DNA from: Patescibacteria group bacterium
Lineage (GTDB): Bacteria; Patescibacteriota; Patescibacteriia; SG8-24; DYFX01
Assembly: GCA_030583805.1 (NCBI GenBank)
Contig: CP129476.1
Coordinates: forward strand, 1,094,657-1,158,656
Reading direction: 5' to 3'
Length of the DNA: 64,000 nucleotides
The notes under the pieces are model-generated. The model was not told the DNA's origin. It saw only the letters and a list, made by a program, of their open reading frames with translations, and searched no databases. Below are positions 17,277-54,522 of this stretch, in pieces. Every line of letters starts with the position of its first letter. Position 1 is the first letter of the stretch. Made by a program: the position numbers and the translations under genes.

Positions 17277-17675
17277 TCAGACGGCCGGCTTCTCCATGAA
17301 GTCGGCCTCGGTCAGCTCGCCGCTGGCGAGAGCGTGCAGGAAGCGGGCGAGGCCGCCGAGGCACTCCTCGGGCTTCGCGAAGTGCTGCGCCCAGCTGTTG
17401 AGGAGGCCGGAGACGTCGAGGGCGTGGCCATGGATCTCCGGGTTGGCTTCGAAGAGCTCCGTGATCTCCGACCAGAGGAACGTTCCGACGTAGATGGGGC
17501 CGGGAATGCCGTAGCGGCTGATGATCTCGCGGACGCGTTCGCGTCCGGCGAAGCCGTCGGGACTCGGTTCCTTCCAGTGCGCCGCATGGGCGTGATGGCT
17601 GGCCCAGCCGAGCCACTTGATGGCGAAGAGCAGCTGGCCGATGCGGATCTGAAGCGGCGGAAAGACTTTCTTCAC
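17277..17675 (-). CDS. Hypothetical protein, 132 aa, His-rich (HHAHAAHW...HGH); possibly DinB-like.
   Basis: GTG start at 17675 with SD ggagga at spacing 4. The long N-terminal extension in the track overlaps the neighbouring gene and is rejected. Confidence 0.45.
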   Translation of the reverse strand: MKKVFPPLQIRIGQLLFAIKWLGWASHHAHAAHWKEPSPDGFAGRERVREIISRYGIPGPIYVGTFLWSEITELFEANPEIHGHALDVSGLLNSWAQHFAKPEECLGGLARFLHALASGELTEADFMEKPAV

Positions 17676-19939: not shown

Positions 19940-20305
19940 ATGCCGCTCCGCCTCGTCATACTGCTCGTTCTTCTTTCGGGCTGCGCTCCGCCGCCCGCTT
20001 CCGAACCTTCGCCGCCTTCCGAATCGCTCGGCGCCTGCCTCGCATCCGCCGGCGCCCGCCTCTACGGCGCGTCGTGGTGCCCGCAGTGCCACAGGCAGCT
20101 GCAGATGTTCGATCCGGAATCCGCGGACGTCCCGTATACGGATTGCGCGCCGGAAGGCACGGTCGGCTTCGTCTCCGCCTGCGAGCAAGGCGGCGTCCCA
20201 TACGGCACGACGCTCCCAGTCTGGATCTTCGCCGACGGTACGCGTCTCTACGGCGTTCGCGATCCCTTCGAGATCGCCGCGACGGCCGGTTGCCTCTCCC
20301 CATAA
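19940..20305 (+). CDS. Thioredoxin-fold lipoprotein (CxxC).
   Basis: Lipobox LLSGC; WCPQC active-site motif; SD aagaaggagg before ATG 19940. Confidence 0.65.
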
Positions 20306-20331
20306 AAGGTGGAGCGGCTTTTCTTTTCGAA

Positions 20332-20365
20332 TAGAAAACGCCCGCCATCAGCGTGATGACGGGCG
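20332..20365 (-). terminator. Intrinsic terminator for the RNA ligase gene; the hairpin overlaps the stop codon.
   Basis: cgcccgccatca-gcg-tgatgacgggcg, with a T-run on the minus strand. Confidence 0.5.
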
Positions 20366-21460
20366 AGCGGCGCGATCGAAATCGCGGACGAGCTTGTACC
20401 AGTTCGGTTCCTTGTGATCGAAGAGCATGAACACGGCTCCGTGGAGTTCCTTCCGCACGTTGTATCGCAGCCATGACGCGAAGGTCTTGCGATCCTCGGT
20501 GAACGGGCCGCAGAACAACGCGGACTCCGCCTCGACGCAGAGCGCCCGCGCCTTGGCGTCGATCTCCGCGACGATGCGGTCCGCTTCGATGCGGGCCTCT
20601 TCGTTCGCATCGGCGACGAGCTTCAGGTACGCCGGCTTGCCGCCCGCGACCAGCGTGTCGAGGATGTTGGGCGCGGAGATGCCCCACGTGCTCCGGCTCC
20701 GGGCGCAGTAGGCGTGCCCCTTCACCTTCACGCGCAGGCCGTTCGCGAACAGGAGGACGAATCCTTCCTGATCCGCCGGCAGCGCCTTGGCCGCCGCGTA
20801 CGCCTCCTCAAACGAGGAGAACGCATACGTCTTCGGCAGCCGCGCGCCGATCGCCTTCGCGACCTCGACGACCGTGTTCCATGGAAGCTCTTCGCCGGTG
20901 ACCCGGTGACGGAGTCCGAGGAGCACGAGTCCTTCGTAGTCGTAGGTGATGACTGAGAGCGCGACGTCTCCCGCCGTCTCGTGCTGCTTCGGGTACACGA
21001 TCTCGAAGATCGGGGTGTAGCCCTCGGGCAGCGCTTCGAGCCGGAGCTTGCGCAGCATTTCGGTACCGCGCAGCGCCTGCGGGGTGTCGAAGCTGCCGCG
21101 CGTCGCGATCCAGGCTTCACCGTGCTCGTCGCGGTACATCATGCCGAACGTGCCGTCGACCTTCTCGAACGCCGTGAACGGCAGGTCGGGAAGATCTTCG
21201 AACTTCGTCGACGTGGGATGGTTCCCGACGTTCGAGAACTTGTCGAAGCCGCGTGCCGCCACCGACCAGTCGCGCGTGTCGACGATCAGGCCGCGGCAGA
21301 CGCTCGTGACGTCGTCCCACGCGGCGCGCTTCTGGCAGTCCTGGTTGTAGTTCAGGAGGACGAAGGGGCCGCGGCGCTTCACGATGACGAGGTGGCCGTA
21401 GGCTTCTTGGAAGAGCGGTTCGTTCTGGAGAACGCGGATGAGCTGTTCGAGTCCGGTCAT
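20348..21460 (-). CDS. ATP-dependent RNA ligase (Rnl2/REL-like covalent nucleotidyltransferase), 370 aa.
   Basis: NTase motif I (FEKVDGTFG), motif IV (QEGFVLL) and motif V (LRVKVKG). ATG at 21460 with a ggagg SD. Codon usage looks atypical: AAG only, very high GC3. Confidence 0.7.
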   Translation of the reverse strand: MTGLEQLIRVLQNEPLFQEAYGHLVIVKRRGPFVLLNYNQDCQKRAAWDDVTSVCRGLIVDTRDWSVAARGFDKFSNVGNHPTSTKFEDLPDLPFTAFEKVDGTFGMMYRDEHGEAWIATRGSFDTPQALRGTEMLRKLRLEALPEGYTPIFEIVYPKQHETAGDVALSVITYDYEGLVLLGLRHRVTGEELPWNTVVEVAKAIGARLPKTYAFSSFEEAYAAAKALPADQEGFVLLFANGLRVKVKGHAYCARSRSTWGISAPNILDTLVAGGKPAYLKLVADANEEARIEADRIVAEIDAKARALCVEAESALFCGPFTEDRKTFASWLRYNVRKELHGAVFMLFDHKEPNWYKLVRDFDRAARPSSR

Positions 21461-21572
21461 GGTGCCTCCGTTCGGGCGGTTTTGGGATGGGGCGCGCGAG
21501 AAACGTCTCTCGGGAGCGCAAAGAGCGACCCGCCAAACTACCCAATTTTCGGCCAAACGTCAAGATTCCCGC

Positions 21573-21601
21573 TTGACAGGCGGCGGGAACCCCTTTATAG
21601 T
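21573..21601 (+). promoter_or_regulatory. Sigma70-like promoter for rpsB (TTGACA, 17 nt, TATAGT), followed by a leader of about 100 nt.
   Basis: Consensus hexamers with 17-nt spacing, read directly from the sequence. Confidence 0.55.
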
Positions 21602-21704
21602 GCGCCCATTATTAACCTCACATTCCCGACAACACTCCTGGGCGCTTCCATCCTCTGGATACGGAAGTCCCGGCCGGGAAGGTGATAAAAGGAGTTTTCT
21701 CTCT

Positions 21705-22469
21705 ATGTACGAGATCCCCGATCTTCTTGAGTTTCTCAAGACGGGCGCCCACTTCGGCCACCAGGTTTCGAAGTGGCACCCGAAAATGAAGCCGTTCCTC
21801 TTCGGTTCCCGGAACGGCATCCATATCATCGACCTGGAACAGACCGTCTTGAAGTTGAAGGAAGCGCTCGACGCCGCGCGCGACATGACCGCCAAGGGCG
21901 GCACGATCGTGTTCCTCGGCACCAAGCGCCAGGCCGCGCCGATCGTCGAGAAGTACGCCAAGGCCTGCGGCGCGCCGTACATCACGACCCGCTGGCTCGG
22001 CGGCACCTTCACGAACTTCCCGGAACTCTCGAAGCTCATCAAGAAGCTGAACGAGTACCGCACGAAGCGCGACACCGGCGGCTTCGACAAGTACACCAAG
22101 AAGGAGCGCGTCGTCATCGATCGCGAGATCGAAGACATGGAGCGCAAGGTCGGCGGCATCGCCACCCTCACCAAGCTCCCGGAAGCGCTGTTCGTCATCG
22201 ACGCCAAGCATGAAAAGACGGCGGTCGAGGAATCGCGCGCGAAGAAGGTTCCGATCTTCTCCCTGATCGACTCCAACATCAACCCGGAAGACATTACCTA
22301 CGGTATTCCGGCCAACGACGACGCCGTGAAGTCCATTGAACTCTTCACGCGCCTCTTCTCCGAAGCCGTGGCCGAAGGCCGCAAGCTCCGCGAGAAGGAC
22401 ATGGCCGTGAAGAAGGCTGAAGCCGTCAAAGCGGAATCGGCCGAACCGGCCCGCGTCATCACCGCGTAA
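21705..22469 (+). CDS. rpsB: 30S ribosomal protein S2.
   Basis: MYEIPDLLEFLKTGAHFGHQVSKWHPKMKPF...; SD aaaaggag; ATG at 21705. Confidence 0.95.
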   Translation: MYEIPDLLEFLKTGAHFGHQVSKWHPKMKPFLFGSRNGIHIIDLEQTVLKLKEALDAARDMTAKGGTIVFLGTKRQAAPIVEKYAKACGAPYITTRWLGGTFTNFPELSKLIKKLNEYRTKRDTGGFDKYTKKERVVIDREIEDMERKVGGIATLTKLPEALFVIDAKHEKTAVEESRAKKVPIFSLIDSNINPEDITYGIPANDDAVKSIELFTRLFSEAVAEGRKLREKDMAVKKAEAVKAESAEPARVITA

Positions 22470-24574: not shown

Positions 24575-25581
24575 TTCGCGTCGCCATCAACGGTTTCGGT
24601 CGCATCGGTCGCAACACCTTCAAAGCCGGATTCGGACGCCTGAAAGACATCGAGTTCGTCGCCGTCAACGATCTGACGGACACGAAAACGCTGGCGCATC
24701 TTTTGAAGCATGATACGAGCTACGGCACGTACGAGCGCGAAGTTTCCTACGACGAGAAGCACGTCATCGTCGACGGCAAGAAGATTCTCGTGATCGCCGA
24801 AAAGGATCCGACGAAGCTTCCGTGGAAGGATTTGAAAATCGACGTCGTGCTCGAGTCGACCGGACGCTTCACCGACGAAGCGGGCGCCTCGCAGCATCTC
24901 ACGGCTGGCGCCAAGCGCGTCATTATTTCGGCGCCCGCCAAAGGCGGCAACGTGCCGACGTACGTGCTCGGCGTGAACGGCGAAACGTACGACAAGGAGC
25001 ATGCCGTCATTAACAACGCTTCGTGCACCACGAACTGCATCGCCCCGGTCGCAGCCGTCATGACCGAAGCCTTCGGCGTGAAAAAGGCGATGATGACTAC
25101 GATCCACAGCTACACGGCCGATCAAAACCTGCAGGACGGGCCGCACAAGGATCTGCGCCGCGCCCGCGCCGCCGCCGTCAATATGGTGCCGACCTCGACG
25201 GGCGCCGCCATTGCCGTCACCGAAACGCTTCCTGAATTGAAAGGCCTGTTCGACGGCCTCTCGATCCGCGTCCCTACGGCGGTCGTCTCGCTCGCGGACT
25301 TTACCTTCGTGATCGACAAAGCGACGACGGTTGAAGAAGTGAACCTCGCGCTCAAGAAAGCGTGCACCAGCAGCCGGTTCAAAGGGGTTATGACCTGCAC
25401 CGACGAAGAACTCGTGTCCTCCGACTTCATCAAGAATCCACATTCGGCCATCATCGATCTCGGCCTGACGCAGGTCGTTGACGGTGATCTCGTCAAAGTC
25501 GTCGCCTGGTACGACAACGAATGGGGTTATTCGAACCGCCTGATCGAAATGGCGGAACGCGTCGGCAAGGCGATCAGGTAA
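24571..25581 (+). CDS. gap: Glyceraldehyde-3-phosphate dehydrogenase.
   Basis: NGFGRIGR Rossmann motif and the catalytic SCTTNC. Confidence 0.95.
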   Translation: MIRVAINGFGRIGRNTFKAGFGRLKDIEFVAVNDLTDTKTLAHLLKHDTSYGTYEREVSYDEKHVIVDGKKILVIAEKDPTKLPWKDLKIDVVLESTGRFTDEAGASQHLTAGAKRVIISAPAKGGNVPTYVLGVNGETYDKEHAVINNASCTTNCIAPVAAVMTEAFGVKKAMMTTIHSYTADQNLQDGPHKDLRRARAAAVNMVPTSTGAAIAVTETLPELKGLFDGLSIRVPTAVVSLADFTFVIDKATTVEEVNLALKKACTSSRFKGVMTCTDEELVSSDFIKNPHSAIIDLGLTQVVDGDLVKVVAWYDNEWGYSNRLIEMAERVGKAIR

Positions 25582-26519
25582 TGCCGGGCAAGTACTCCAA
25601 GCCGGTCTACGTCCTCGATCTTCCGTGGCAGATCTTTGATCTTGCCATTGTCAGCGCGTTGGCATTTTTTTCGGCGGCTTTTTTCTGGAGCCGATCGGTT
25701 GAAGGATCGTTCGGAATCCTGGTGATGCTCGCAAGCGCCGCCGGTTTTGCGACGATCTTCTACGGTTCGTTCATCGAGCCGCGCCGTTTGCGCGTCCGCC
25801 GCTATTCCGTAGGAGCGGGGGAGCGCAGTCTTACCGTCGCGTTCCTCTCCGATATCCACGTCGGCCCTTATAAAGGAAGGTCGTGGGTGCGGCACGTCGC
25901 GCGGAAAACGCAAGCGCTGAAGCCGGACGTACTTCTTCTCGGCGGCGACTTTCTTTATGAAAAAGCGGAAGCGTTGCCGCATCTCGCGCCGCTCAAGGAC
26001 ATGCGCGCGCCGCTCGGCGTCTACGCGATTCTCGGCAATCACGACGAATGGAAATCGCGCACCGAAGCGCTGGCGTGGTTCGAGGCCTCAGGCATTCCGC
26101 TGCTTCATAATCGCTCCGCGCGGGTTGAAAAAGACGGCGCGTCGGTCGTGATCGCCGGTGCGGAGGATGATTGGTATGGCGAGACCGACCTGGCGGCGGC
26201 ATTGCGCGATGTCGGCATGGCGGATCTCTCGCTCGTCATGCTGCACAATCCCGACCTGGCGCATCCGTCCGCCGCGCTTCTTCAGGCGCGTTCCGGGAAA
26301 ACGGTCTTTTTCTCGGGCCACACCCACGGCGGACAAATCCGCCTGCCGTTCGTCGGCTCGGTCATGCGCTTGCCGCATTATCTGGGTCGCCGCTATGACC
26401 GCGGCGTCTTTTCCTTCGACGGCGTGCCCCTGGTTCTCGGCGCCGGCCTCGGCGAATCCGGCCCCCGCGCCCGCCTGTTTTGCCCGCCGGAGATCGTACT
26501 GGTTACGGTACGCTTCTGA
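25581..26519 (+). CDS. Membrane-anchored calcineurin-like metallophosphoesterase.
   Basis: Two N-terminal TM helices; motifs DIHVG, GGDFL, GNHD, GHTHGG. TAATG overlap with the gap stop. Confidence 0.75.
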   Translation: MPGKYSKPVYVLDLPWQIFDLAIVSALAFFSAAFFWSRSVEGSFGILVMLASAAGFATIFYGSFIEPRRLRVRRYSVGAGERSLTVAFLSDIHVGPYKGRSWVRHVARKTQALKPDVLLLGGDFLYEKAEALPHLAPLKDMRAPLGVYAILGNHDEWKSRTEALAWFEASGIPLLHNRSARVEKDGASVVIAGAEDDWYGETDLAAALRDVGMADLSLVMLHNPDLAHPSAALLQARSGKTVFFSGHTHGGQIRLPFVGSVMRLPHYLGRRYDRGVFSFDGVPLVLGAGLGESGPRARLFCPPEIVLVTVRF

Positions 26520-29927: not shown

Positions 29928-31190
29928 ATGCCCACCATTCGCGAAATTACAGGACGGGAAATTCTCGACTCGCGCGGCAACCCGACGGTCGAGGCGAAGA
30001 TCACGCTCTCGGACGGTACCGTCGCCAAGGCGTCGGTGCCTTCGGGCGCTTCGACGGGCGTACATGAGGCGCATGAGCTGCGCGACGGCGACAAGCGCCG
30101 CTACGGGGGTTTGGGCGTCTTGAAGGCGGTCAAGAACATCGACGGCCCGATCGCCGACGCGCTGCGCGGCATGGAAGTGCAGGAACAGCGCAAGATCGAC
30201 GCGCGCATGTGCGACTTGGACGGCACGCCGAACAAGTCGAAGCTGGGCGCGAACGCCATCCTCGGCGTCTCGCTGGCCGCCGCGCGGGCCGGAGCGACGT
30301 CCCTCCAGCTCCCGCTCTACCGCTATCTGCGCGACGTTTTCGACCTGCCGCGCGAAGACGGATACAAGATGCCGCTGCCGATGATGAACGTCTTGAACGG
30401 CGGCGCGCACGCCGATTGGAGCATCGATTTCCAGGAGTGCATCATTATTCCGAAGCAGAAAAAATTCCGGGAACGCGTCCGCTGCGGCTCGGAAATTTTC
30501 CACGCGCTGCGCGGCATCCTGAAGGCCAAGAAGTTTTCAGTCGGCGTCGGTGATGAAGGCGGCTTCGCGCCGAAACTCAAGAAGAACGCCCAGGCTTTCG
30601 AATTGATCGCGCTCGCGGTGCGCAAGGCTCGTTACAAGCTCGGCACGGACGTCGGATTCGGCATGGATCCGGCGACCTCCGAGTTCTATGACGCGAAGAA
30701 GAAGAAATACATCCTGGCCACCGACGGCCGCAAGCTGGACGCCGACGGCATGGTCAAGATGTGGGCGTCGTACGTGAAGAAATGGCCGTTCGTCTCGATC
30801 GAAGACGGCATGGCCGAAGACGATTGGAGCGGCTGGAAGCAATTGACCGACGCGCTCGGAAAGAAGATCGCGCTGGTCGGCGACGATTTCTTCGTCACGA
30901 ACGCCGACCGGCTCCGTATGGGCATCGAGCGCGGCGCGGCCAACGCGATCCTGATCAAGGTGAACCAGATCGGCACGCTTTCGGAGACGATCGACGCGAT
31001 CCGCCTCGCGCAGCGCAGCGACTACAAAGTCGCCGTTTCGCACCGTTCCGGAGAAACGGCCGACACGATGATCGCCGACTTGGCGGTCGCGGTGAACGCC
31101 GAATTCATCAAAACTGGATCCCTCTCGAGGAGCGAGCGCCTCGAGAAATACAACCGCTTGATGGAAATCGAGGATGAAGTCGGAGCCTAA
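29928..31190 (+). CDS. eno: Enolase.
   Basis: Full-length enolase: SRGNPTVEA...; SGETED-like motif SGETAD. Confidence 0.95.
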   Translation: MPTIREITGREILDSRGNPTVEAKITLSDGTVAKASVPSGASTGVHEAHELRDGDKRRYGGLGVLKAVKNIDGPIADALRGMEVQEQRKIDARMCDLDGTPNKSKLGANAILGVSLAAARAGATSLQLPLYRYLRDVFDLPREDGYKMPLPMMNVLNGGAHADWSIDFQECIIIPKQKKFRERVRCGSEIFHALRGILKAKKFSVGVGDEGGFAPKLKKNAQAFELIALAVRKARYKLGTDVGFGMDPATSEFYDAKKKKYILATDGRKLDADGMVKMWASYVKKWPFVSIEDGMAEDDWSGWKQLTDALGKKIALVGDDFFVTNADRLRMGIERGAANAILIKVNQIGTLSETIDAIRLAQRSDYKVAVSHRSGETADTMIADLAVAVNAEFIKTGSLSRSERLEKYNRLMEIEDEVGA

Positions 31191-32748
31191 AAAAGCGATT
31201 CGTCCGGTCGTTCTCGTGATTTGCGACGGCTTCGGTTCGGCTCCCGCCGGGCTGCAAGGTAACGCCGTCCTGATGGCGCGCCTGCCGAACCTTTCCGCGC
31301 TATGGGAAAAGTATCCCCGCACGGAATTGTTTGCGCATGGCCAGCACGTCGGGTTGCCGAAGCATCAGCCGGGCAATTCCGAGGCTGGGCACATGAATCT
31401 CGGCGCCGGCCGCGTCGTGAAACAGGACGCCGTCTACATCACCGAAGCGATCGAGGACGGCGTTTTCTTCAAGAACACGGCGTTTCTTGAAGCGTTCAAG
31501 CACGTCAGGAAATACAAGACGCGCGTGCACCTCATGGGCCTCATTTCGGCCGGCAAGTCGGCGCACGCCTCGATGGATCATCTTTACGCGCTCTTGGAGT
31601 TGTGCCGGCGCCAGAAAATCGACGACGTGGCGTTGCATCTTTTTACCGACGGACGCGACAGCCCGCGCTTTGCCGCTACGGCGCAGGTGCATGAGATCGA
31701 GGCGCGACTCCGACCGGGCGAGCGCATCGCCACGATCATGGGGCGTTTCTATCCGATGGACCGCAATCGGAATTGGAAACGCGTCGATTTGGCGTACCAC
31801 GCCATCGTGAACGGCGAAGGGCTTGCGGCAGCGAGCGCCGAAGAAGCCTTGCTCGGCGCCTATAACCGCGGCGAGACCGACGAATTCGTGCTGCCGACCG
31901 TCATCGTCGACAAGGAGCACGTGCCGCACGGCACGGTGCGCGACAACGACGCGATCTTCTTTTTCAATCTCCGCTCCGACCGCGCGCGCCAGCTCACCAA
32001 ATCCTTCTTGCTCGACGATTTCGAAAAGAGCGTGCCGGACGCCTTTAAGCGCCGCCGCGTGCCGAAGAAAACGCGCTTCGTCGCCATGACGGACTTCGGT
32101 CCGGACCTGCCGTACATCCTCACGGCTTATCCCAGCCGGGAATTGCACCGCACGCTGCCGGAGGTGCTCAAGAACCTGAAGCAGTTCTACGTCGCCGAGT
32201 CGGAAAAATTTTCGCACATCACGTTTTTCTTCAACGGCGGCTATCCCGACCACAAGTTCGGCGAGGAGCGCCTGCGCATCGAGTCGCTGCGCATTCCGCG
32301 CCACGACATGCGACCGGAGATGAAATCGATGGAAGTCACGACGGAAGTGCTGAAGCGCTTGCGCTCCGGCAAATACCACTTCATCGCCCTGAACTTCGCC
32401 AACGCCGACATGATCGGTCACACCGGCAACCTGGAAGCGGCGGTCGGCGCGCTCGAGGTGATCGACGACTGCATCGGGCGCCTTTGGAAAGAAGTCGAGG
32501 CAAGGGACGGAACGCTGTTCGTGACCGGCGACCATGGCAACGTCGAATCCATGATCGACGTCGCGACGGGCGCGATCGTCACCGAGCACTCCGCCAACCC
32601 GGTGCCGTTCGTGGTTGCGAGCAAGGCGTTGAAAGGCGCGCGCGAGCTGCCGCGCGGCGTACTGGCCGACGTCGCCCCGACGATCCTGGACGTCATGGGC
32701 ATCCGCCCGCCGGACGAGATGAGCGGACGCTCTTTGCTGGCCGATTGA
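31174..32748 (+). CDS. gpmI: 2,3-bisphosphoglycerate-independent phosphoglycerate mutase, copy 1.
   Basis: iPGM motifs VVLVICDGFG and GNSEAGHMNLGAGR, plus the C-terminal metal-binding domain. It overlaps the eno 3' end by 17 nt. Confidence 0.9.
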   Translation: MKSEPKKAIRPVVLVICDGFGSAPAGLQGNAVLMARLPNLSALWEKYPRTELFAHGQHVGLPKHQPGNSEAGHMNLGAGRVVKQDAVYITEAIEDGVFFKNTAFLEAFKHVRKYKTRVHLMGLISAGKSAHASMDHLYALLELCRRQKIDDVALHLFTDGRDSPRFAATAQVHEIEARLRPGERIATIMGRFYPMDRNRNWKRVDLAYHAIVNGEGLAAASAEEALLGAYNRGETDEFVLPTVIVDKEHVPHGTVRDNDAIFFFNLRSDRARQLTKSFLLDDFEKSVPDAFKRRRVPKKTRFVAMTDFGPDLPYILTAYPSRELHRTLPEVLKNLKQFYVAESEKFSHITFFFNGGYPDHKFGEERLRIESLRIPRHDMRPEMKSMEVTTEVLKRLRSGKYHFIALNFANADMIGHTGNLEAAVGALEVIDDCIGRLWKEVEARDGTLFVTGDHGNVESMIDVATGAIVTEHSANPVPFVVASKALKGARELPRGVLADVAPTILDVMGIRPPDEMSGRSLLAD

Positions 32749-32770: not shown

Positions 32771-34348
32771 ATGCCTACACCGAAACCCGTCGTACTCCTG
32801 ATTCTCGATGGCTGGGGCGTCGCCCCGCCCGACCAGGGAAATGCGCTCGCCATCGCCAAGACCCCCAACATCCGCGCGCTGGCCTCGAAATATCCGGCCA
32901 TGACGCTCCAGTCCTCCGGCGAAGAAGTCGGGCTCATGTGGGGCGAGATGGGCAATTCGGAAGTCGGCCACCTGACGATCGGCGCCGGCAAGGTCTACTA
33001 CCAGAGCCTGCCGCGCATCAACCGTGCCGTCCAAGGCGGCGAATTTGCGACGAACATGGCGTTCGTCAAAGCGGTCGAGCACGTGAAGAAGAACGGAACG
33101 AAATTGCACTTGCTCGGCCTCGCCTCGATCGGCAACGTGCACGCTTCGCTCGAGCACCTGCTCGCGCTGCTTGATTTCGCCAAGGCCAACGACGTCAAGG
33201 AAACGTACGTGCACGCCGTGCTCGACGGGCGCGACACCACGTTCAACGCCGGCATTGACTTCATCACCACGGTGACGGAGCGCATGAAGAAGAACGGCGT
33301 CGGCAAGATCGCCACGCTCTCCGGACGCTTTTACGCCATGGACCGCGACAATCGCTGGGATCGCATCGAGAAGGCATATCGCGCCATGGTCGAAGGCAAG
33401 GCCGACGCGACGAGCGACGACCCGCTCGCGGCCATCCGCGCTTCCTACGAAGCCAAAGTCTACGACGAGGAATTCGTTCCGACGGTGATTACCGAGAACG
33501 GCGCGCCTGTCGCCACGATCGGCGCCGGCGACGCCGTGATCGTCTTCAATTACCGCCCCGACCGCTCGCGCGAAATCACGAGGGCGCTGGCGCTGCCGGA
33601 TTTCGACAAGTTCGCGCGCCCGCAAGTCAGCGATCTTCTCGTCATTACGATGACAGAATACGAAAAAGGTTTCCCGGTCGAAGTCGCCTTTCCGCCCGAG
33701 CCGATTTCGACGTGCCTGGCCAAAGTCATTTCCGACGCCGGCATGAAGCAGCTGCATATCGCCGAGACGGAAAAATACGCGCACGTCACCTTCTTCTTGA
33801 ACGGCATGAAGGAAGATCCTTTCCGCGGCGAGGACCGCGTCATCATTCCGTCGCCGCAGGTTTCCTCGTACGACCAGCAGCCCGAAATGTCGGCGCCGCT
33901 CATCACCGAGCGCATCGTCAAGGAAATCAACGCCGGAAAATACGATCTGATCGCCGCCAACTACGCCAACGGTGACATGGTCGGCCACACCGGCAATCTG
34001 GACGCGACCGTCAAAGCGGCAGAAGTCGTCGACGCCTCGATCGGCAAGATCGTCGAAGCGGCGCTCGAAAAAGGCGGCGTCGTGCTCATCACCGCCGACC
34101 ACGGCAACGCCGAAGAGGTCGTCAATTTGCAGACCGGATCGATCGACAAGGAACACTCCACCTATCCCGTGCCTTTCTTGATCATCGGCCAGCAGTTCGA
34201 AGGCATGGCCGGCGAAGCGCAAGAAATGGTCGGCGGCGACCTGAGCCTCAGCCCGCCGGTCGGCATGCTCTCCGACGTCACCCCGACAATTCTCCGCATC
34301 ATGGGCATTCCGCAGCCGAGCGACATGACGGGGAGGCCGTTGATTTGA
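32771..34348 (+). CDS. gpmI: 2,3-bisphosphoglycerate-independent phosphoglycerate mutase, copy 2; a diverged tandem paralogue.
   Basis: iPGM motifs VVLLILDGWG and GNSEVGHLTIGAGK. It is clearly homologous to, but distinct from, copy 1. Confidence 0.9.
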   Translation: MPTPKPVVLLILDGWGVAPPDQGNALAIAKTPNIRALASKYPAMTLQSSGEEVGLMWGEMGNSEVGHLTIGAGKVYYQSLPRINRAVQGGEFATNMAFVKAVEHVKKNGTKLHLLGLASIGNVHASLEHLLALLDFAKANDVKETYVHAVLDGRDTTFNAGIDFITTVTERMKKNGVGKIATLSGRFYAMDRDNRWDRIEKAYRAMVEGKADATSDDPLAAIRASYEAKVYDEEFVPTVITENGAPVATIGAGDAVIVFNYRPDRSREITRALALPDFDKFARPQVSDLLVITMTEYEKGFPVEVAFPPEPISTCLAKVISDAGMKQLHIAETEKYAHVTFFLNGMKEDPFRGEDRVIIPSPQVSSYDQQPEMSAPLITERIVKEINAGKYDLIAANYANGDMVGHTGNLDATVKAAEVVDASIGKIVEAALEKGGVVLITADHGNAEEVVNLQTGSIDKEHSTYPVPFLIIGQQFEGMAGEAQEMVGGDLSLSPPVGMLSDVTPTILRIMGIPQPSDMTGRPLI

Positions 34349-34867: not shown

Positions 34868-36028
34868 ATGTCCCAGAACTTCACGCTTACGCATCAGGAC
34901 AAGTACTCGCGCGCACGCGCGGGGGTTTTGCATACCGAGCACGGCGACGTGGAGACGCCTGTTTTCATGCCGGTCGGCACGCAGGCGACCGTGAAGGCGC
35001 TCGACGCGGCCGACATGGAAATGCTCGGCGCGCAGATCATCCTGAACAATACCTATCACTTGCACTTACGGCCGGGGGAGGACATCGTCAAAAACCTCGG
35101 CGGCGCGCATGCGTTCCAGCATTGGAACCGCGCGATTTTGACCGACTCGGGCGGCTACCAGGTGTTTTCGCTCGGCGCGAAGAAAGCGGCGACGGGAAAT
35201 TTGGTAAAGATCGACGAAGACGGCGTGACCTTCAAGTCACATCTCGACGGTTCGAGCCACCGCTTCACGCCGGAAGAGGCAATCAGGATCCAGCAGAAAC
35301 TTGGCGCCGACGTCATCATGGCGTTCGATCAGTGCACGTCGGACAGCGCCTCGGAGGAAGAAGCGCGTACGGCGATGGAGCGCACGCACCGCTGGGCGGA
35401 CCGCTGTCTTGCGGCCTTTGCCGACAAGAAGGATGCGCCGACGTTCAAACAGCAGCTCTTCGGCATCGTCCAGGGCGGCGTGCACAAGGACTTGCGCCGC
35501 GCTTCGGCGGAGTTCATCGCGTCGCGCCCGTTCGACGGTTTCGCGATCGGCGGCGAGTCGGTCGGCTACAACATGGAAAAGACGCGCGAGATTCTCGGTT
35601 GGATCGAAGACCTCATGCCCGCAGACAAAGCGCGCTATACGATGGGTGTCGGGCTTTCGCCGGAGGATCTCTTTGATGTCGTCGAGGGCGGCGCCGACAT
35701 GTTCGACTGCGTTTCACCGACCCGCGTGGCGCGCAACGGCGCCTTGTTCAACCGCAAGGCCGGACGCTCGAAAAAATACCGCATCGAAATCGGCAACAAG
35801 GCGCACGAGCAGGACACGCGCCTGATCGACGAAGAATGCGGCTGCTTCACGTGCAAAAACTATTCGCGCGCCTATCTTCGCCATCTCTTCCTCGCCGAAG
35901 AGCTCGCGTATTTCCGTCTCGGTACGATCCATAACCTGCACTTCCTCCTCAATCTGATGCGCGAAATGCGCAAAGCGATTTTGGAAGACCGCTTCCTGGA
36001 GTTCAAGAAAAGCTGGATCGTCGAATAA
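34868..36028 (+). CDS. tgt: Queuine tRNA-ribosyltransferase.
   Basis: Full-length Tgt: TPVFMPVGTQATVK, DSGGYQVFSL, and the zinc site CGCFTC...H. Confidence 0.95.
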   Translation: MSQNFTLTHQDKYSRARAGVLHTEHGDVETPVFMPVGTQATVKALDAADMEMLGAQIILNNTYHLHLRPGEDIVKNLGGAHAFQHWNRAILTDSGGYQVFSLGAKKAATGNLVKIDEDGVTFKSHLDGSSHRFTPEEAIRIQQKLGADVIMAFDQCTSDSASEEEARTAMERTHRWADRCLAAFADKKDAPTFKQQLFGIVQGGVHKDLRRASAEFIASRPFDGFAIGGESVGYNMEKTREILGWIEDLMPADKARYTMGVGLSPEDLFDVVEGGADMFDCVSPTRVARNGALFNRKAGRSKKYRIEIGNKAHEQDTRLIDEECGCFTCKNYSRAYLRHLFLAEELAYFRLGTIHNLHFLLNLMREMRKAILEDRFLEFKKSWIVE

Positions 36029-38212: not shown

Positions 38213-39238
38213 TCAGACGATCAGCATGGCGTCGCCGTAACTATAGAAGCGGTATTTTTTCTTCACGGCCTCGCGGTACGTTTTGAGCATGCGATCGCGA
38301 CCGGCCAAAGTTGAAACGAGCACGAGCAGCGTTGATTTCGGAAGGTGAAAATTCGTCATCAGGGCGTCGACGACGCGGAACTTGAAACCGGGACGGATGA
38401 AAATATTCACGTCGCCGTGCCAGGCGCAAAGTTCGCCGCCGCATTGCGCAACGGCGCCTTCAAGCGCGCGGACCGTGGTCGTACCGACGGCGATCACGCG
38501 GCGCTTCTCGACTTTTGCCTTCAAGATTTCCTTGACGGTTTTTTCTGGGATCTCAACCCACTCGGCGTGCATCTGATGCGCATCGATCTCATCGGCGCGG
38601 ATCGGTAGGAAGGTGCCGAGTCCGACATGCAGCGTGACTTCCAAAAACGTCACGCCTTTCTTTTTCAGCTTCGCGATCAAGGCCTTGGTGAGATGGAATC
38701 CGGCTGTCGGCGCGGCGACGGAACCGACGCTTTTGGCGTACGCGGTCTGGTATTCGGACGCGCGCGGTTTGCGCGTGATGTAGGGCGGCAGGGGAATCTC
38801 GCCGTTTTTGTCGGCCAGCTTGATGACCGCGTCTTTCTTCATGCCGAAATCGACGAGGATCGAGCCGTCCGCGTCTTTCCATTCGACGGTCGCCACGAAT
38901 CCGCGCGCGATCGTGATTTTCGATCCGTGCGAAAGTTTACGGCCCGGTTTCGCGAGCGCGCGCCAGAATTTGCCCTCAGGGCGCACCAAGAAAATTTCAA
39001 CGGCGGTTTTCTTCGTGTCATTCAGCGTCCCGCCCAGCCGCGCCTTAAAGACCTTGCTGACGTTCACGACGAGCACGTCGCCCTTCTTCAAAAAGTCAGG
39101 GAGATCCTTCACGCGCTTGTGCGAGAGGGTGTCGCTTTTCCGATCCAATACCAAAAGGCGGGCCGACTCGCGCGGCGAGGCCGGTTTCTGGGCAATCAGC
39201 GTTTCTGGGAGGTGATAGTCAAAATCAGATGTGCGCAT
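38213..39238 (-). CDS. queA: S-adenosylmethionine:tRNA ribosyltransferase-isomerase.
   Basis: Full-length QueA: DFDYHLPETLIAQKP... Confidence 0.9.
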   Translation of the reverse strand: MRTSDFDYHLPETLIAQKPASPRESARLLVLDRKSDTLSHKRVKDLPDFLKKGDVLVVNVSKVFKARLGGTLNDTKKTAVEIFLVRPEGKFWRALAKPGRKLSHGSKITIARGFVATVEWKDADGSILVDFGMKKDAVIKLADKNGEIPLPPYITRKPRASEYQTAYAKSVGSVAAPTAGFHLTKALIAKLKKKGVTFLEVTLHVGLGTFLPIRADEIDAHQMHAEWVEIPEKTVKEILKAKVEKRRVIAVGTTTVRALEGAVAQCGGELCAWHGDVNIFIRPGFKFRVVDALMTNFHLPKSTLLVLVSTLAGRDRMLKTYREAVKKKYRFYSYGDAMLIV

Positions 39239-49874: not shown

Positions 49875-50168
49875 ATGGGGGTAGATCCCAAGCGCCAGTG
49901 GCACGAGCAAGTACGGAGCGCGCTCGAGAAGTGCGATCATGACACCAGCCCCGACGCGTTCGCCGCGCTCATCGCCGTGATGCTGTACGGCAAGGAGAAT
50001 CCCCAGGATTTCCTCGCCAGTCTCGCCGGCTTCACGCACGACCAGGAGAAGCTCTGGATCCAGGCCTGGGCCAAGGGCGCCATGGTGCCGACGCCCAGGA
50101 TGCGCCAGATGATCGTCTTCGGCGTGCGGGAACACCTCTCCAAGTTCCGAGAGGGTGGTCATGCCTGA
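49875..50168 (+). CDS. Hypothetical small protein, 97 aa; first gene of a compositionally atypical two-gene cassette.
   Basis: SD aagcaggagg before the ATG. Codons are AAG/GAG-only with high GC3, unlike the flanking genes. Confidence 0.5.
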   Translation: MGVDPKRQWHEQVRSALEKCDHDTSPDAFAALIAVMLYGKENPQDFLASLAGFTHDQEKLWIQAWAKGAMVPTPRMRQMIVFGVREHLSKFREGGHA

Positions 50169-50430
50169 CGACGCGCGCCGCGCCATGAAGGAGAAGCTGC
50201 TCGACGACGCTCGCGCCTGGGAGACGGATCATCCCGACCGCAGCTTCGTCGACATTCTGCGGAACGCCATCGATCTCGATCCGACGTACCTCGATCGCCT
50301 GCGCGGCTCGCTCGGGCTCGAAGAGGAGGATGTGCTCGACTGGTGCGCCGGTCGCGCGCTTCCCGACACGTTCGCCCGTTGGGCCGTGATCGACGATCTG
50401 AAGAAGTTTCTCGAAGCCGACCTCGACTGA
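50161..50430 (+). CDS. Hypothetical small acidic protein, 89 aa; second cassette gene.
   Basis: 8-nt overlap with the previous gene and the same atypical codon usage. A terminator follows at 50432-50453. Confidence 0.5.
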   Translation: MPDDARRAMKEKLLDDARAWETDHPDRSFVDILRNAIDLDPTYLDRLRGSLGLEEEDVLDWCAGRALPDTFARWAVIDDLKKFLEADLD

Positions 50431-53689: not shown

Positions 53690-53765
53690 GCTTCCTCCGT
53701 CCGCGAGCATACTCCTTTTGCGAGGTGCGTCAATGTGCTACATTCGTGCCGGAGGAAATCCATCT

Positions 53766-54302
53766 ATGGTTCAGACGACGCCGAACAAGGAGTACGAAGA
53801 AAAGTTTCTCGTGCGGCAGGATCTCTTGCCGAACGAGCTTCTTTTGAACCTCTCGGACATCCGGCAGGGCTTCCTCTCGCTCGAGCCCGTCGTGCGCATC
53901 CGCGAGCAGGACGGCGTCTACATCGCCGAGTTCAAGGGCGGAAACGACGACGAAATTCTCATCGGTCACCCCTCTTCGAAAGACGGGGCGCAGCTTCTCG
54001 GGCATTGCGCGGCCGTGGCCGGCATCGTCACGAAAGGGCGCGCCCGCATCGCGGCCGGATTCGACCGGCGGGTATGGGAACTCGACGTCTTCCGCGGCAA
54101 GAACGCGCCGCTCATGGTCGTCGAAATCGAGAAGCCTACGAAGCGCTATCCGCTCAAACGGTACAAGAAGCTCTGGCCCGAGTGGGTCGGCAAGAACGTC
54201 ACGAAGGACAAGCGTTTCAAGAACAAGGCGCTCGCCGTCCGGCCGTTCGCGAGCTGGCCGAAGGCGGAACGCAAAGAAATCCTCAAATTAATGGGCCTTT
54301 AG
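53766..54302 (+). CDS. CYTH-domain protein (triphosphate tunnel metalloenzyme-like).
   Basis: N-terminal EYEEKFLV (the ExExK motif), with the later acidic strand MVVEIE; 178 aa. Confidence 0.6.
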   Translation: MVQTTPNKEYEEKFLVRQDLLPNELLLNLSDIRQGFLSLEPVVRIREQDGVYIAEFKGGNDDEILIGHPSSKDGAQLLGHCAAVAGIVTKGRARIAAGFDRRVWELDVFRGKNAPLMVVEIEKPTKRYPLKRYKKLWPEWVGKNVTKDKRFKNKALAVRPFASWPKAERKEILKLMGL

Positions 54303-54439
54303 CCCATTTTTTCTTTGTGGATAACCCGGGGTTGTGCCTGGGGGCAGAGGTTCTATACTAGGGGCACCTAACGGACACCGCGTATGTTGAACCGGACGCA
54401 ATTCATTGCACGGAACGCATCCGATTTCCGATTGGTATC

Positions 54440-54468
54440 AAAAAACTCTTCGTCGTGAAGAGTTTTTT
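54440..54468 (+). promoter_or_regulatory. Perfect palindromic hairpin (aaaaaactcttc-gtcgt-gaagagtttttt) in the 5' region of the large atypical gene; terminator or attenuator-like.
   Basis: 12-nt perfect arms with A and T flanks. A TATACT -10-like element lies 85 nt upstream at 54354. Confidence 0.45.
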
Positions 54469-54522
54469 GGTCGCTCCTTGATCGGAGCTCTTTCCAAAGC
54501 CCACAGACCAGAGAGGTATGTC

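Follow-up and report, generated by a model that had tools for sequence, protein, structure and literature searches.

T4 RNA ligase 1 (Rnl1, also RnlA or gp63) reverses a host defence that cuts tRNA. To our knowledge, detailed understanding of Rnl1-type ligases is limited to phage T4 and eukaryotic tRNA splicing, and none of the papers in the literature that we searched deals with the characterisation of an Rnl1 from bacterial cells. Here we describe the predicted Rnl1-type ligase encoded in a 64-kb stretch of a 1.17-Mb Patescibacteria genome (the whole stretch that was analysed, here referred to as the window), and compare it with its closest described relatives.

What defines each RNA ligase family is the domain attached to a common nucleotidyltransferase (NTase) core (PMC6379707). 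T4 Rnl1 (PDB 2c5u, 5tt6, 9do4) is the best match of the window ligase by sequence, profile and fold, yet the two proteins are about 20% identical. They are alike in length class (370 and 374 aa) and in domain order, in which an N-subdomain is followed by the NTase core and an all-helical C-domain. Moreover, R56, K74, F75, K100, E153, E232, K245 and K247 of the window ligase correspond to R54, K75, F76, K99, E159, E227, K240 and K242 of T4 Rnl1. The window ligase differs in having R121 where T4 has K119, in a loop of 12 residues, specific to the clade, that follows motif III, and in a C-domain too diverged to give a match of its own to that of T4. It also differs in setting, being a cellular gene beside rpsB with neither a Pnkp partner nor a PrrC-type nuclease within the window.

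The adenylyltransferase domain of Rnl1 type, including the N-subdomain, is shared with the fungal tRNA ligase Trl1-LIG (Rnl6; 6n67, 6n0t), which matches the window ligase with a Foldseek E-value of 1e-12 and a profile E-value of 3e-9, the profile match ending at motif V. The C-domain of Trl1 is of another kind, kinase and CPD domains are fused to the ligase, and the enzyme depends on a 2'-PO4 end (PMC6379707). Nothing of the sort was seen for the window ligase. T4 Rnl2 and the kinetoplastid REL enzymes have the superfamily chemistry in common with it (lysyl-AMP; motifs I, III, IV and V), but lack the N-terminal subdomain and carry a different C-domain.

Among bacteria, other stand-alone Rnl1-like ligases are found, for example, in Saccharibacteria, Anaerolineales and Planctomycetota (loci L007-L010; proteins P0007-P0029). 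They are 40-47% identical to the window ligase over the full length, C-domain included, and likewise stand alone in cellular surroundings that have no neighbouring gene in common; however, they are 344-356 aa long, lack the clade-specific loop and are unlinked to rpsB. Seven Bacteroidota loci (e.g. L074) encode ligases of the same family in pairs that resemble the heal-and-seal pair of T4. In these pairs a P-loop kinase ORF, about 291 aa long, comes after the ligase; we call it T4-Pnkp-like from its length and an N-terminal P-loop read by eye, whereas the Patescibacteria gene has no such partner.

Gene and cassette structure

The ligase CDS occupies positions 20348..21460 of the minus strand, stop codon included, and encodes a predicted stand-alone ATP-dependent RNA ligase of 370 aa. 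According to the ORF list and the sequence, it starts with ATG at 21460 and stops at 20350-20348. An earlier note, made from the sequence alone, had placed the ORF at 20332-21460; the ORF is real, but the end given there lies 16 nt beyond the stop codon, inside a terminator hairpin. This intrinsic-terminator-like hairpin with its T-run (20329..20365, minus strand) has a 12-bp stem with 8 GC pairs and overlaps the stop codon. Upstream, a Shine-Dalgarno site GGAGG was read from the sequence at 21465..21469 (minus strand), separated from the ATG by a 4-nt spacer, and its GGAG core is present upstream of the ligase in 5/5 orthologous regions. A candidate promoter, TTGACG-17 nt-TAGTTT (21535..21563, minus strand), lies back-to-back with that of rpsB; its TTGAC is invariant and its TA..TT conserved across five orthologous loci, and a promoter consensus scan missed it. 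The ligase transcript is predicted to start near 21528. Taken together, 20329-21563 would be a self-contained one-gene cassette with promoter-like site, ribosome-binding site, CDS and terminator.

None of the five or six orthologues has a broken or shortened ligase frame, and among them codon-position identity falls in the order position 2, position 1, position 3. The dN/dS ratio of the whole gene is 0.38-0.53, that is, below 1 (0.05-0.22 for the neighbouring genes). The codon-position pattern, the dN/dS ratio, the Shine-Dalgarno site, the terminator and the conserved TTGAC..TA..TT all argue for a real, functional gene.

As the earlier note had remarked, the ligase is wedged beside rpsB, which it adjoins divergently. 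The rpsB gene (ribosomal protein S2; 21705..22469, plus strand; PF00318 in orthologous loci) lies outside the cassette, and its promoter-like site TTGACA-17-TATAGT (21573..21601, plus strand) marks the right-hand edge of the apparently inserted segment. On the other side, the convergent neighbour is a 121-aa thioredoxin-fold, lipoprotein-like ORF (19940..20305, plus strand) with a CPQC motif and a weak mycoredoxin match. The wider flanks are rpsB-tsf and rpmE-prfA-prmC.

Assignment to the Rnl1 family

Four kinds of search agree in placing the window protein among the ATP-dependent RNA ligases of the T4 Rnl1 (RnlA/gp63) family, an assignment made from sequence and predicted fold. The protein matches Pfam PF09511 with an E-value of 2.8e-16 (60.5 bits, the cut-off being 28.3) and PHROG 562 (phrog_562) with an E-value of 9e-43 over residues 28-352. 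In the PDB, T4 Rnl1 is its best solved relative by single-sequence comparison (E 1e-9), and a profile of the family (alignment A3) finds T4 Rnl1 at E 6.6e-40, covering T4 residues 33-367, and no Rnl2 entry at E<=1. An AlphaFold2 model (pLDDT 94.4) searched with Foldseek matched T4 Rnl1 with an E-value of 5.7e-19, while T4 Rnl2 ranked 33rd (E 1.6e-5, TM 0.33) and DNA ligases ranked below it.

The earlier note had recognised an ATP-dependent RNA ligase, which holds, but called it Rnl2-like, which these results contradict. Motifs I (KVDG), IV (EGFVLL) and V (VKVKG), on which it relied, are all present in the ORF; they are common to the entire superfamily, however, and would fit an Rnl2/REL-type nick-sealing ligase, a DNA ligase or a capping enzyme as well. 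Some homologues also show a weak match to the Rnl2 family PF09414. The window protein itself has no PF09414 match at E<=1, and the HMM search suggested in that note gives Rnl1 as the family. Nor does the motif spacing follow Rnl2/REL: the motif I lysine is residue 100, preceded by an Rnl1-type N-subdomain, and positions 100/232/245/247 parallel 99/227/240/242 of T4 Rnl1. With the Pfam, Foldseek and family-profile results, we regard an Rnl2, DNA-ligase or capping assignment as ruled out for practical purposes, with next to no probability left to it.

The window protein is identical to the NCBI protein [quoted passage not shown] (P0001), and the public annotation thus already names it correctly. 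Its score against NCBIfam TIGR02308 ("T4 RnlA family RNA ligase") is 55.4 bits, under the equivalog cut-off of 242.25. Despite the name of the NCBI record, it is by this score a relative within the family and not an equivalog of T4 RnlA.

Catalytic and C-terminal domains

The adenylyltransferase domain (residues 1-251; 20708..21460, minus strand) comprises the Rnl1-type N-subdomain and the NTase core and aligns with the structures of T4 Rnl1, Trl1-LIG and Rnl3. All the features described below lie on the minus strand. In the N-subdomain, the segment with R56, K74 and F75 (21230..21298) was identified from conservation and from alignment to 2c5u/5tt6: C-R56-G and K74-F75 align to R54 and K75/F76 of T4, whose roles we take from PMC6379707, and the fold match spans this subdomain. 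The core motifs K100-V-D-G, F152-E153, E232-G233 and K245-x-K247 are all present. Motif I (residues 100-103; 21152..21163) contains K100, the predicted AMP-accepting lysine equivalent to T4 K99; motif III (IFEIVY; 20993..21010) contains E153, equivalent to T4 E159. Motif IV (residues 232-237; 20750-20767) supplies E232/G233, the equivalents of T4 E227/G228, and motif V (residues 244-248; 20717-20731) supplies K245/K247, the equivalents of T4 K240/K242. R56, F75, K100, G103, E232, G233, K245 and K247 are invariant in 117/117 homologues (alignment A3), among which G57, K74 and D102 are nearly invariant; K74 is invariant in the 25 closest (25/25, alignment A1). The clade-specific loop after motif III (residues 158-169; 20954-20989) occurs in P0001-P0006 only; the mean pLDDT for the block of residues 161-170 is 62.

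The C-terminal domain (residues 252-370; 20351..20707), with six predicted helices, is the presumed substrate-specificity module and evolves fast. Among the orthologues its dN/dS is 0.55-0.89, compared with 0.30-0.46 for the NTase domain; the upper value could reflect relaxed constraint instead of adaptation. Modelled alone by AlphaFold2, the domain folds with a pLDDT of 92.5. At the sequence-profile level the family appears to have an Rnl1-type C-domain: the A3 profile runs through T4 Rnl1 residue 367, whereas its alignments to Trl1 and Rnl3 end at motif V, and the isolated C-domains of two relatives (P0008 and P0014) match phrog_562 positions 251-352 with E-values of 5e-5 and 6.5e-4. For the window protein this indication is indirect, through its relatives. 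Its own C-domain alone gave no phrog_562 match in PHROG, and a C-domain profile found no Rnl1 sequence in the PDB. For the model of the domain, the two best matches in the PDB were both T4 Rnl1, though with an E-value of 2.0 and a TM of 0.35. Because the window C-domain alone has no significant match to that of T4 Rnl1, tRNA specificity is not confidently transferable from T4.

Codon usage

The codon usage of the ligase gene was compared with that of the 58 genes of the window. As the earlier note had stated, every Lys codon is AAG (AAA 0 / AAG 19; with a pooled AAG fraction of 0.65 the binomial p is 2.3e-4, or about 0.013 corrected for 58 genes), and GC3 is high, at 0.876 (z +1.9; the window has a mean of 0.794 and an sd of 0.043). 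In synonymous usage it is the third most deviant of the 58 genes (z 5.9). The same note had contrasted it with gap and rpsB as native genes that mix AAA and AAG. This applies to gap (11 AAA / 14 AAG) but not to rpsB, which has 2 AAA / 27 AAG and, at 0.875, the GC3 of the ligase. Further genes rich in AAG are nusG (2/18), rplY (3/20) and rplA (7/26). By tetranucleotide composition, a check that had been proposed, the ligase is not unusual (correlation of 0.90 with the window), the ribosomal protein genes being more deviant (0.71-0.85). Codon usage alone cannot tell a foreign gene from one strongly biased like ribosomal protein genes.

Other comparisons set the ligase apart from the ribosomal protein genes. 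On PC1, the ribosomal-protein codon axis, it scores 0.6 compared with 3.0 for rpsB; it favours GCG, and its orthologues also GAG, whereas ribosomal protein genes favour GCC and GAA. The bias persists in orthologues against backgrounds of lower GC3, including L001 (bulk GC3 0.62-0.66).

The earlier note had seen the same signature in two other places. One of them, 54406/54523-56787, bears this out (2 AAA / 58 AAG, GC3 0.88, p 7e-10): no other gene has a codon-residual vector that correlates so well with that of the ligase (r 0.48), and in a PCA of RSCU values this gene and the ligase take the first two places on PC3. By PHROG, its product resembles the phage T5 A1-like "DNA transfer protein" (E 3e-93). 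The other, 49875-50430, shows the signature weakly, with Lys counts (AAA/AAG) of 0/6 and 0/4 that are not significant per gene. The Band7 gene adjoining the ligase in L001 and L002 was considered as a relative of the 793-aa ORF 54406-56787, with which it has no similarity.

Two explanations of the bias were rejected. That an AAG-only gene stays translatable after cleavage of tRNA-Lys(UUU) does not serve as a general explanation, because AAA avoidance is not a family trait: when 58 Rnl1-like loci from other bacteria were compared with their flanks, the difference averaged -0.004 (p 0.63). That saturated synonymous sites would imply an actively maintained bias fails because the relatives are close (S2 91-98% identical, dS 0.2-1.4) and these sites unsaturated, which leaves room for slow amelioration. 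A tRNA-Lys(UUU) gene lies in the window at 60359-60434.

Origin of the cassette

The position of the ligase next to rpsB is conserved in five close relatives (L001/L005, L002/L003, L004, L006). In three sister genomes (L168, L169 and L170) the ligase is missing and rpmE directly faces rpsB, although these genomes are close to that of the window (S2 85-94% identical, 94% in L168; RF1 83-89%). Their rpmE-rpsB gaps measure 259 bp (L168), 230 bp (L169) and 1140 bp (L170), and tblastn at E<=50 found no ligase remnant in them. In L168 and L169 the homology with the window begins where the rpsB leader starts, about 30 nt downstream of the rpsB -35 box (89% identity over ~98 nt), and the -35 box is also present there by eye. 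The 121-aa ORF is variable at the same hotspot, being present without the ligase in L170 and missing from L006, L168 and L169.

In a tree of S2 and RF1, the ligase-bearing genomes group together in 121/200 bootstraps, with L168, L169 and L170 outside. Ligase identities (87% between the window and L002, 82% between L004 and L006) parallel this tree, so that the ligase phylogeny proposed in the earlier note agrees with that of the core genes. Outside the clade the nearest relatives, 40-47% identical, stand in cellular contexts. One pattern-limited scan of 185,579 GTDB species genomes gave 216 confirmed loci; among the best 80 of these, the only two above about 45% identity come from this clade. 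No flanking repeats or mobile-element scar were found around the cassette and no integrase or transposase in its flanks, and the sole tRNA gene of the 64-kb window is 39 kb away.

The comparison with the ligase-less sister genomes, rather than codon usage, supports the view that the cassette is a horizontally acquired accessory gene, as the earlier note had proposed. Since the five relatives share the position and the ligase tree fits the core-gene tree, the acquisition appears not to be recent for the window genome. We envisage a single insertion at the divergent rpmE-rpsB junction in an ancestor of a small Patescibacteria clade, after which the cassette would have been inherited vertically while the protein, above all its C-domain, diverged quickly. 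With 60% bootstrap support for the ligase-bearing group, a loss in L168 and a gain later than the divergence of L168 are equally possible.

Other histories have to be weighed against this one. Were the ligase a native housekeeping gene inherited vertically, with its AAG-only, GC3-rich usage due to high expression, the Lys bias and GC3 it shares with rpsB, nusG, rplY and rplA would be accounted for. So would its normal tetranucleotide composition, the synteny kept in five genomes, the failure to find an integrase or flanking repeats, and its dS (0.21-0.68), which is as low as that of S2/L25 (0.22-0.44) and under that of bulk genes (0.45-1.4) in most comparisons. We nevertheless consider such a history unlikely, given three sister genomes that lack the gene while the rpmE-rpsB junction and the rpsB promoter/leader are intact, the rarity of close homologues among the best 80 GTDB loci, the separation from ribosomal protein genes on PC1 and in GCG/GAG preference, and a protein whose rate of evolution is 7-10 times that of S2 or RF1. 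This fast evolution, the C-domain ratio in particular, together with the lack of partner genes and the variable presence of the hotspot neighbours (the 121-aa ORF and the Band7 gene), would suit a passenger that was acquired once and is now decaying or drifting under relaxed function. Such decay is improbable in view of the intact frames, the invariant catalytic residues, the clearly purifying selection on the NTase domain, the confidently predicted fold of the C-domain, the conserved promoter-like site, Shine-Dalgarno site and terminator, and the codon bias kept even in L001.

A phage source was suggested by the annotation of the best PHROG, "RNA ligase and tail fiber protein attachment catalyst", and by the T5 A1-like gene of the same codon signature. 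The ligase might then be a prophage remnant that keeps the second activity of T4 gp63, tail-fibre attachment, or a member of a phage-derived island. This we hold to be very unlikely: genes for phage structural proteins, integrase or lysis are missing within 10 kb, rpsB-tsf and rpmE-prfA-prmC flank the ligase, the cassette has one gene only, and its closest relatives are cellular. No relative from phages or IMG/VR exceeds 39% identity, on which ground a recent phage origin was rejected.

Proposed function

The reading that we prefer, and hold to be probable, is that of a one-gene cassette for a stand-alone T4 Rnl1-family RNA ligase, inserted once between rpmE and rpsB and serving to reseal RNA. 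By inference from the family, K100 of motif I would react with ATP to form ligase-AMP, with R56 and K74 holding the gamma-phosphate, F75 stacking on the adenine, and E153, E232, K245 and K247 completing the active site. The AMP would then pass to the RNA 5'-phosphate, and attack by the 3'-OH would close the break. The most likely function would be to reseal 3'-OH/5'-P breaks in RNAs with structure, tRNA among them; if the enzyme acts as T4 Rnl1 does, these may be single-strand breaks in RNA stem-loops, for example in tRNA anticodon loops cut by ribotoxins.

Partner end-healing enzymes, which the earlier note had proposed to look for, were found neither in the cassette and orthologous loci (kinase or phosphatase) nor among the window proteins scanned. 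Next to the ligase, and among these proteins from 64 kb of the 1.17-Mb genome, the search found no gene for a Pnkp-like, HD-Pnk, RtcA/B or Hen1 enzyme or for an anticodon nuclease. Since the cassette has no end-healing kinase or phosphatase, the enzyme would either seal clean 3'-OH/5'-P breaks or need enzymes encoded elsewhere in the genome. Three unlinked genes of the metallophosphoesterase family lie at 25521-26519 (YaeI/LpxG-like), 54523-56787 (T5 A1-like) and 62134-63705. A search of PADLOC-DB v2 at E<=0.01 matched 0 defence families for the ligase and three other ORFs of the earlier note, and membership in a known anti-phage defence system was rejected for want of a match.

A more speculative extension, to which we give a low probability, is that the ligase is a cellular counterpart of the T4 counter-defence, a stand-alone Rnl1 that rejoins the cell's own tRNAs or stem-loop RNAs after they are cut by nucleases. 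An ultra-small, probably host-attached patescibacterium might meet anticodon nucleases or ribotoxins from its host, competitors or phages. The substrate-recognition C-domain could then be diversifying in an arms race (dN/dS to ~0.9, with core proteins ~92% identical), and the back-to-back promoters of ligase and rpsB could couple repair capacity to ribosome synthesis.

Significance

The practical significance of the locus is modest, as it adds a new, already correctly named protein to a known enzyme family. It is a clean example that codon bias alone is a poor test of foreignness, the codon signal being ambiguous and the sister-genome comparison decisive. More broadly, it suggests that in cellular genomes, those of the genome-reduced Patescibacteria among them, an Rnl1-type enzyme can be encoded by a cassette of one gene, without an adjoining healing partner and with a presumed substrate-binding domain that changes fast between near-identical genomes. 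The window ligase may therefore serve as a concrete and cheap candidate for asking which RNAs the cellular Rnl1 ligases repair.

Family assignment of the ligase

The ORF beside rpsB had been read as an Rnl2-like RNA ligase. It does encode an RNA ligase, as its matches to PF09511, phrog_562 and T4 Rnl1 indicate, and the motifs claimed for it are present (KVDG at residues 100-103, EGFVLL at 232-237 and VKVKG at 244-248), but Pfam, PHROGs, PDB sequence and profile searches and Foldseek all place it in the Rnl1 family instead. PF09511 (RNA_lig_T4_1) was the sole Pfam match (E 2.8e-16), with no match to PF09414 at E<=1. Residues 28-352 matched positions 30-352 of the 377 in phrog_562 (E 9e-43), which is annotated as 'RNA ligase and tail fiber protein attachment catalyst'. 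Searched against PDB, the single sequence found T4 Rnl1 (2c5u, 9do4, 5tt6) at about 1e-9, while a family profile of 117 homologues found T4 Rnl1 at 6.6e-40 over T4 residues 33-367, Trl1 at 3e-9 and Rnl3 at 2e-3, the last two in alignments that stop at motif V, and no Rnl2 chain at E<=1. With the AlphaFold2 model (pLDDT 94.4), Foldseek ranked T4 Rnl1 first (5.7e-19), then fungal Trl1-LIG (near 1e-12) and, further down, archaeal Rnl3 (near 1e-9) and Naegleria Rnl5 (near 1e-6); T4 Rnl2 was 33rd (1.6e-5).

Numbering derived from the printed alignment equates T4 Rnl1 K99, E159, E227/G228 and K240/K242 with K100, E153, E232/G233 and K245/K247 of the ligase. T4 R54, K75 and F76, through which the Rnl1-type N-subdomain contacts the gamma-phosphate and the adenine (PMC6379707), correspond to R56, K74 and F75, and T4 K119 is replaced by R121. 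R56, F75, K100, G103, E232, G233, K245 and K247 are invariant in the 117 homologues, and K74 and E153 nearly so. Against the NCBIfam equivalog model TIGR02308 the ligase scored 55 bits, where 242 would be required; it is a member of the family and not a T4 RnlA equivalog. Public annotation already gives it the right name.

What defines an RNA ligase family is the domain attached to its nucleotidyltransferase core (PMC4408790, PMC6379707), and the C-terminal domain (C-domain, residues 252-370) was therefore tested separately. Modelled alone, it forms a confident six-helix domain (pLDDT 92.5), whose top two PDB matches were T4 Rnl1 at a non-significant level (E 2, TM 0.35). A C-domain-only profile found no Rnl1 sequence in PDB, and the window's C-domain alone matched no Rnl1 PHROG. 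The C-domains of the homologues P0008 and P0014, clearly alignable with it, match phrog_562 positions 251-352 (E 5e-5 and 6.5e-4), and the full-family profile runs through the C-domain of T4 Rnl1 but leaves out the C-domains of Trl1 and Rnl3. On this transitive evidence we concluded that the C-domain is best read as a diverged Rnl1-type domain.

Gene arrangement and the rpsB leader

The longest form of the ORF (20348-21556, minus strand, 402 aa) begins with TTG. We take the ATG at 21460 as the real start (20348-21460, minus, 370 aa), since GGAGG precedes it with a 4-nt spacer, the product exactly matches an NCBI protein ('MAG: T4 RnlA family RNA ligase [Patescibacteria group bacterium]') and the position is common to the aligned orthologues. 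Identity among the orthologues keeps the order codon position 2 > 1 > 3, which argues for a genuine coding frame. A candidate promoter, TTGACG-17 nt-TAGTTT (21563-21535, minus), is conserved in five orthologous loci, with TTGAC invariant and TA..TT kept; it stands back-to-back with a strong promoter-like site of rpsB, TTGACA-17-TATAGT (21573-21601, plus). At the other end, a GC-rich terminator-like hairpin of 12 bp followed by a T-run (20365-20339, minus) overlaps the stop codon. With its own promoter-like site, Shine-Dalgarno sequence and hairpin, between divergent rpsB (21705-22469, plus) and a convergent 121-aa thioredoxin-fold ORF (hyp121; 19940-20305, plus), the ligase gene would be a self-contained monocistronic unit.

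The rpsB leader of roughly 100 nt (21602-21704, plus) is highly conserved in eight related genomes. It is predicted to fold into a long hairpin of 21 pairs, four of which show compensatory changes, and one relative (L170) carries a 50-nt apical insertion. No Rfam family matched it at E<=10, and it is a candidate for an S2 autoregulatory leader restricted to this lineage of Patescibacteria.

Codon usage

We compared 58 window genes, obtained with a codon log-odds caller plus rpsB added by hand. The ligase has 0 AAA and 19 AAG among its Lys codons (binomial p 2.3e-4 against the pooled AAG fraction of 0.65), a GC3 of 0.876 (window mean 0.794, sd 0.043) and the third most deviant synonymous usage overall (z 5.9). 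The earlier note had contrasted this with gap and rpsB. Indeed, gap mixes its Lys codons (11 AAA, 14 AAG), but rpsB resembles the ligase (2 AAA, 27 AAG, GC3 0.875), and nusG (2/18), rplY (3/20) and rplA (7/26) are also AAG-rich. Tetranucleotide composition, put forward as a further check, is unremarkable for the ligase (correlation with the window 0.90), the outliers being ribosomal protein genes (0.71-0.85). The signature is thus real but modest, and cannot by itself prove foreign origin.

Nevertheless, the ligase is not simply 'ribosomal-like'. On PC1 of an RSCU PCA, the ribosomal-protein axis, rpsB lies at 3.0 and the ligase at 0.6, and the two highest genes on PC3 are the ORF at 54523-56787 (2.23) and the ligase (1.64). 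Among residual vectors, the one most strongly correlated with that of the ligase also belongs to this ORF (r 0.48; 0.29 for rpsB). The ligase over-uses GCG where ribosomal protein genes favour GCC, and in the orthologues GAG is favoured where ribosomal protein genes favour GAA. Of the two regions said to share the signature, 54523-56787 does so, and 49875-50430 only weakly (0/10 Lys codons in total). Every orthologue retains it (AAA/AAG 1/21, 0/22, 0/20; GC3 0.84-0.91), even with a bulk-neighbour GC3 of 0.62-0.79.

In a Saccharibacteria MAG of 48% GC (L007), the Rnl1-like gene likewise exceeds its flanks in GC3 (AAA fraction of Lys codons 0.19 vs 0.57, GAA fraction of Glu codons 0.50 vs 0.75), and ligases of candidate-phyla-radiation genomes may come from GC-richer donors. 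The idea that an AAA-free CDS keeps the ligase translatable once tRNA-Lys(UUU) is cut was rejected as a general explanation, as 58 other Rnl1-like loci showed no AAA avoidance relative to their flanks (mean difference -0.004, p 0.63).

No gene of the window has a more extreme codon bias than the ORF at 54523-56787 (AAA 2 / AAG 58, GAA 9 / GAG 39, GC3 0.88). Its T5 A1-like product of 754 aa matches phrog_1745 'DNA transfer protein' (E 3e-93) and the metallophosphoesterase phrog_221, with GDWH/GD/NHNE/GHDH motifs seen by eye and nothing found in Pfam, NCBIfam or PADLOC. Together with its upstream neighbour (53688-54302, plus; phrog_6660 match), it looks like a phage-derived islet.

Presence, absence and origin at the rpmE-rpsB junction

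Contigs with the closest homologues share the order tsf-rpsB, divergent ligase, convergent hyp121, then rpmE-prfA-NTP transferase-hyp132-prmC-rplY, with a Band7 gene between hyp121 and rpmE in some. Identity to the window ligase is 87% in L002/L003, 71% in L001 (= L005), 59% in L004 and 57% in L006; the genomes are closely related, with S2 91-98% and RF1 91-94% identical. L006 (CAZKMF010000138.1) is a 9-kb contig from a MAG labelled 'uncultured Gammaproteobacteria'. Its S2 (95%), EF-Ts, L31 and RF1 are 91-95% identical to the window's in unchanged gene order, and the contig almost certainly comes from a Patescibacteria genome and was mis-binned.

A scan of metagenome contigs for relatives of the window S2 protein revealed ligase-less sisters. 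In L168 (S2 94%, RF1 89% identical) and L169 (88%, 85%), rpmE faces rpsB over 259 and 230 bp; in L170 (85%, 83%), hyp121 and a different ORF, of 125 aa, occupy the gap. No ligase remnant was found in the three gaps (tblastn E<=50). BLAST of the window against L168/L169 gave 89% over about 98 nt spanning the rpsB leader, beginning some 30 nt beyond the -35 box of rpsB on its downstream side; by eye, this box too was seen in both gaps. The inserted segment therefore ends near the rpsB promoter. No bracketing repeats surround the cassette, and no integrase lies nearby.

In a neighbour-joining tree of S2+RF1, the five ligase-bearing genomes group in 121 of 200 bootstraps, with L168 as sister and L169 and L170 further out. 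Ligase identities mirror this tree (window-L002 87%, L004-L006 82%, about 57-60% between these two pairs). The simplest history would be a single insertion at a variable hotspot, with vertical inheritance from then on; loss in L168, instead of gain after the split, is a possible alternative. That the gene was acquired, as the earlier note suggested, is supported by the ligase-less sisters, and the codon argument offered for it was partly wrong. A recent phage origin lacks support, because homologues from cultured phages and IMG/VR are no more than 34-39% identical. Among the matches listed, the nearest relatives outside the clade are stand-alone ligases (40-47% identical, 344-356 aa) from a Saccharibacteria MAG, Anaerolineales, Planctomycetota and unassigned contigs, where their neighbours are ordinary cellular genes, for instance glycosyltransferase clusters and sensor kinases. 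More distant Rnl1-like genes (28-39%) are widespread among the best 80 of 216 loci, in Hyphomicrobiaceae, Rhizobium, Methylobacterium, Acetobacteraceae, Fimbriiglobus, Cytophagales, Pseudanabaena and DPANN archaea.

The junction itself (window 20189-21704, L168:6742-7000, L169:6771-7000, L170:5861-7000, L172:3810-5135) is a hotspot whose cargo differs among relatives: nothing, hyp121 with the 125-aa ORF, hyp121 with ligase, ligase alone, or hyp121 with a 675-aa Band7 protein and ligase. In the distant L172 (47% GC), it holds a 141-aa ORF (GC3 0.89, Lys 0/7, Glu 1/15).

Evolutionary rates

Pairwise Nei-Gojobori estimates among the orthologues gave the ligase dN 0.08-0.35, dS 0.21-0.68 and omega 0.38-0.53, against omega 0.05-0.22 for the flanking S2, RF1, NTP transferase, PrmC and L25. 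Its dS matches the low values of S2 and L25 (0.22-0.44) and in most comparisons lies below bulk genes (0.45-1.4); synonymous change in the ligase is slowed by strong codon bias. Its dN exceeds that of S2 or RF1 by a factor of 7-10 and resembles that of PrmC. By domain, omega is 0.30-0.46 in the adenylyltransferase part and 0.55-0.89 in the C-domain, which is just 41% identical between genomes with core proteins about 93% identical. The pairwise counts fit either relaxed constraint or diversifying selection on this presumed substrate-recognition module.

Another fast-evolving, GC3-extreme gene in conserved position is the 132-aa ORF between prmC and the NTP-transferase gene (17277-17675, minus; GC3 0.89, orthologues 0.91-0.95), which has no family match. 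It forms two very different allele groups, with dN/dS about 1 between them and 0.19 and 0.67 within. Elsewhere, tandem cofactor-independent phosphoglycerate mutase-like paralogues follow eno (31174-32748 and 32771-34348, plus), with tgt and queA, two genes of tRNA modification, nearby (34868-36028, plus; 38213-39238, minus), all read by eye.

Partners and possible role

The end-healing partner that the earlier note proposed to look for did not appear: no kinase-phosphatase, RtcA/B or Hen1 occurs in the cassette, the orthologous loci or the window proteins scanned, and no known PADLOC defence model matches the ligase. Three metallophosphoesterase-family genes in the window are unlinked to it, namely a YaeI/LpxG-like gene conserved beside gap (25521-26519), the T5 A1-like gene (54523-56787, plus) and one with a weak Metallophos match (62134-63705). 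When neighbours were clustered at 80 Rnl1-like loci from other bacteria (best 80 of 216), only one partner recurred, a P-loop kinase ORF of ~291 aa (MKKVIILRGLPGSGKST...) directly downstream of the ligase in 7/80 loci (L074 and six others among L005-L084), with low-GC Bacteroidota-type labels where checked. By length and N-terminal P-loop it looks like T4 Pnkp. A T4-like heal-and-seal pair may therefore exist in some cells, though not here. A TROVE/Ro-like ORF, read by eye, lies near the ligase in a few other loci. Two homologues, P0111 and P0112, are about 615 aa each; in P0111 the Rnl1-type domain is joined in one chain with a metallophosphoesterase domain (PF00149), so that it is possibly a single-chain heal-and-seal enzyme, while P0112 has no recorded PF00149 match.

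Conservation of the catalytic residues strongly supports the ligase chemistry, in which a three-step pathway through K100-AMP would seal 3'-OH/5'-P breaks in structured RNA. By analogy with T4 Rnl1 (PMC3400036, PMC6379707), the substrate may be tRNA loops and the role repair after ribotoxin damage. In the 64 kb a single RNA gene was found, for tRNA-Lys(UUU) (60359-60434, plus). This is the tRNA that T4 Rnl1 naturally repairs; its presence in the window is probably a coincidence, as the gene lies 39 kb from the ligase. Of some interest are the clean insertion beside the rpsB promoter, the absence of an adjacent healing partner and the fast-evolving C-domain.
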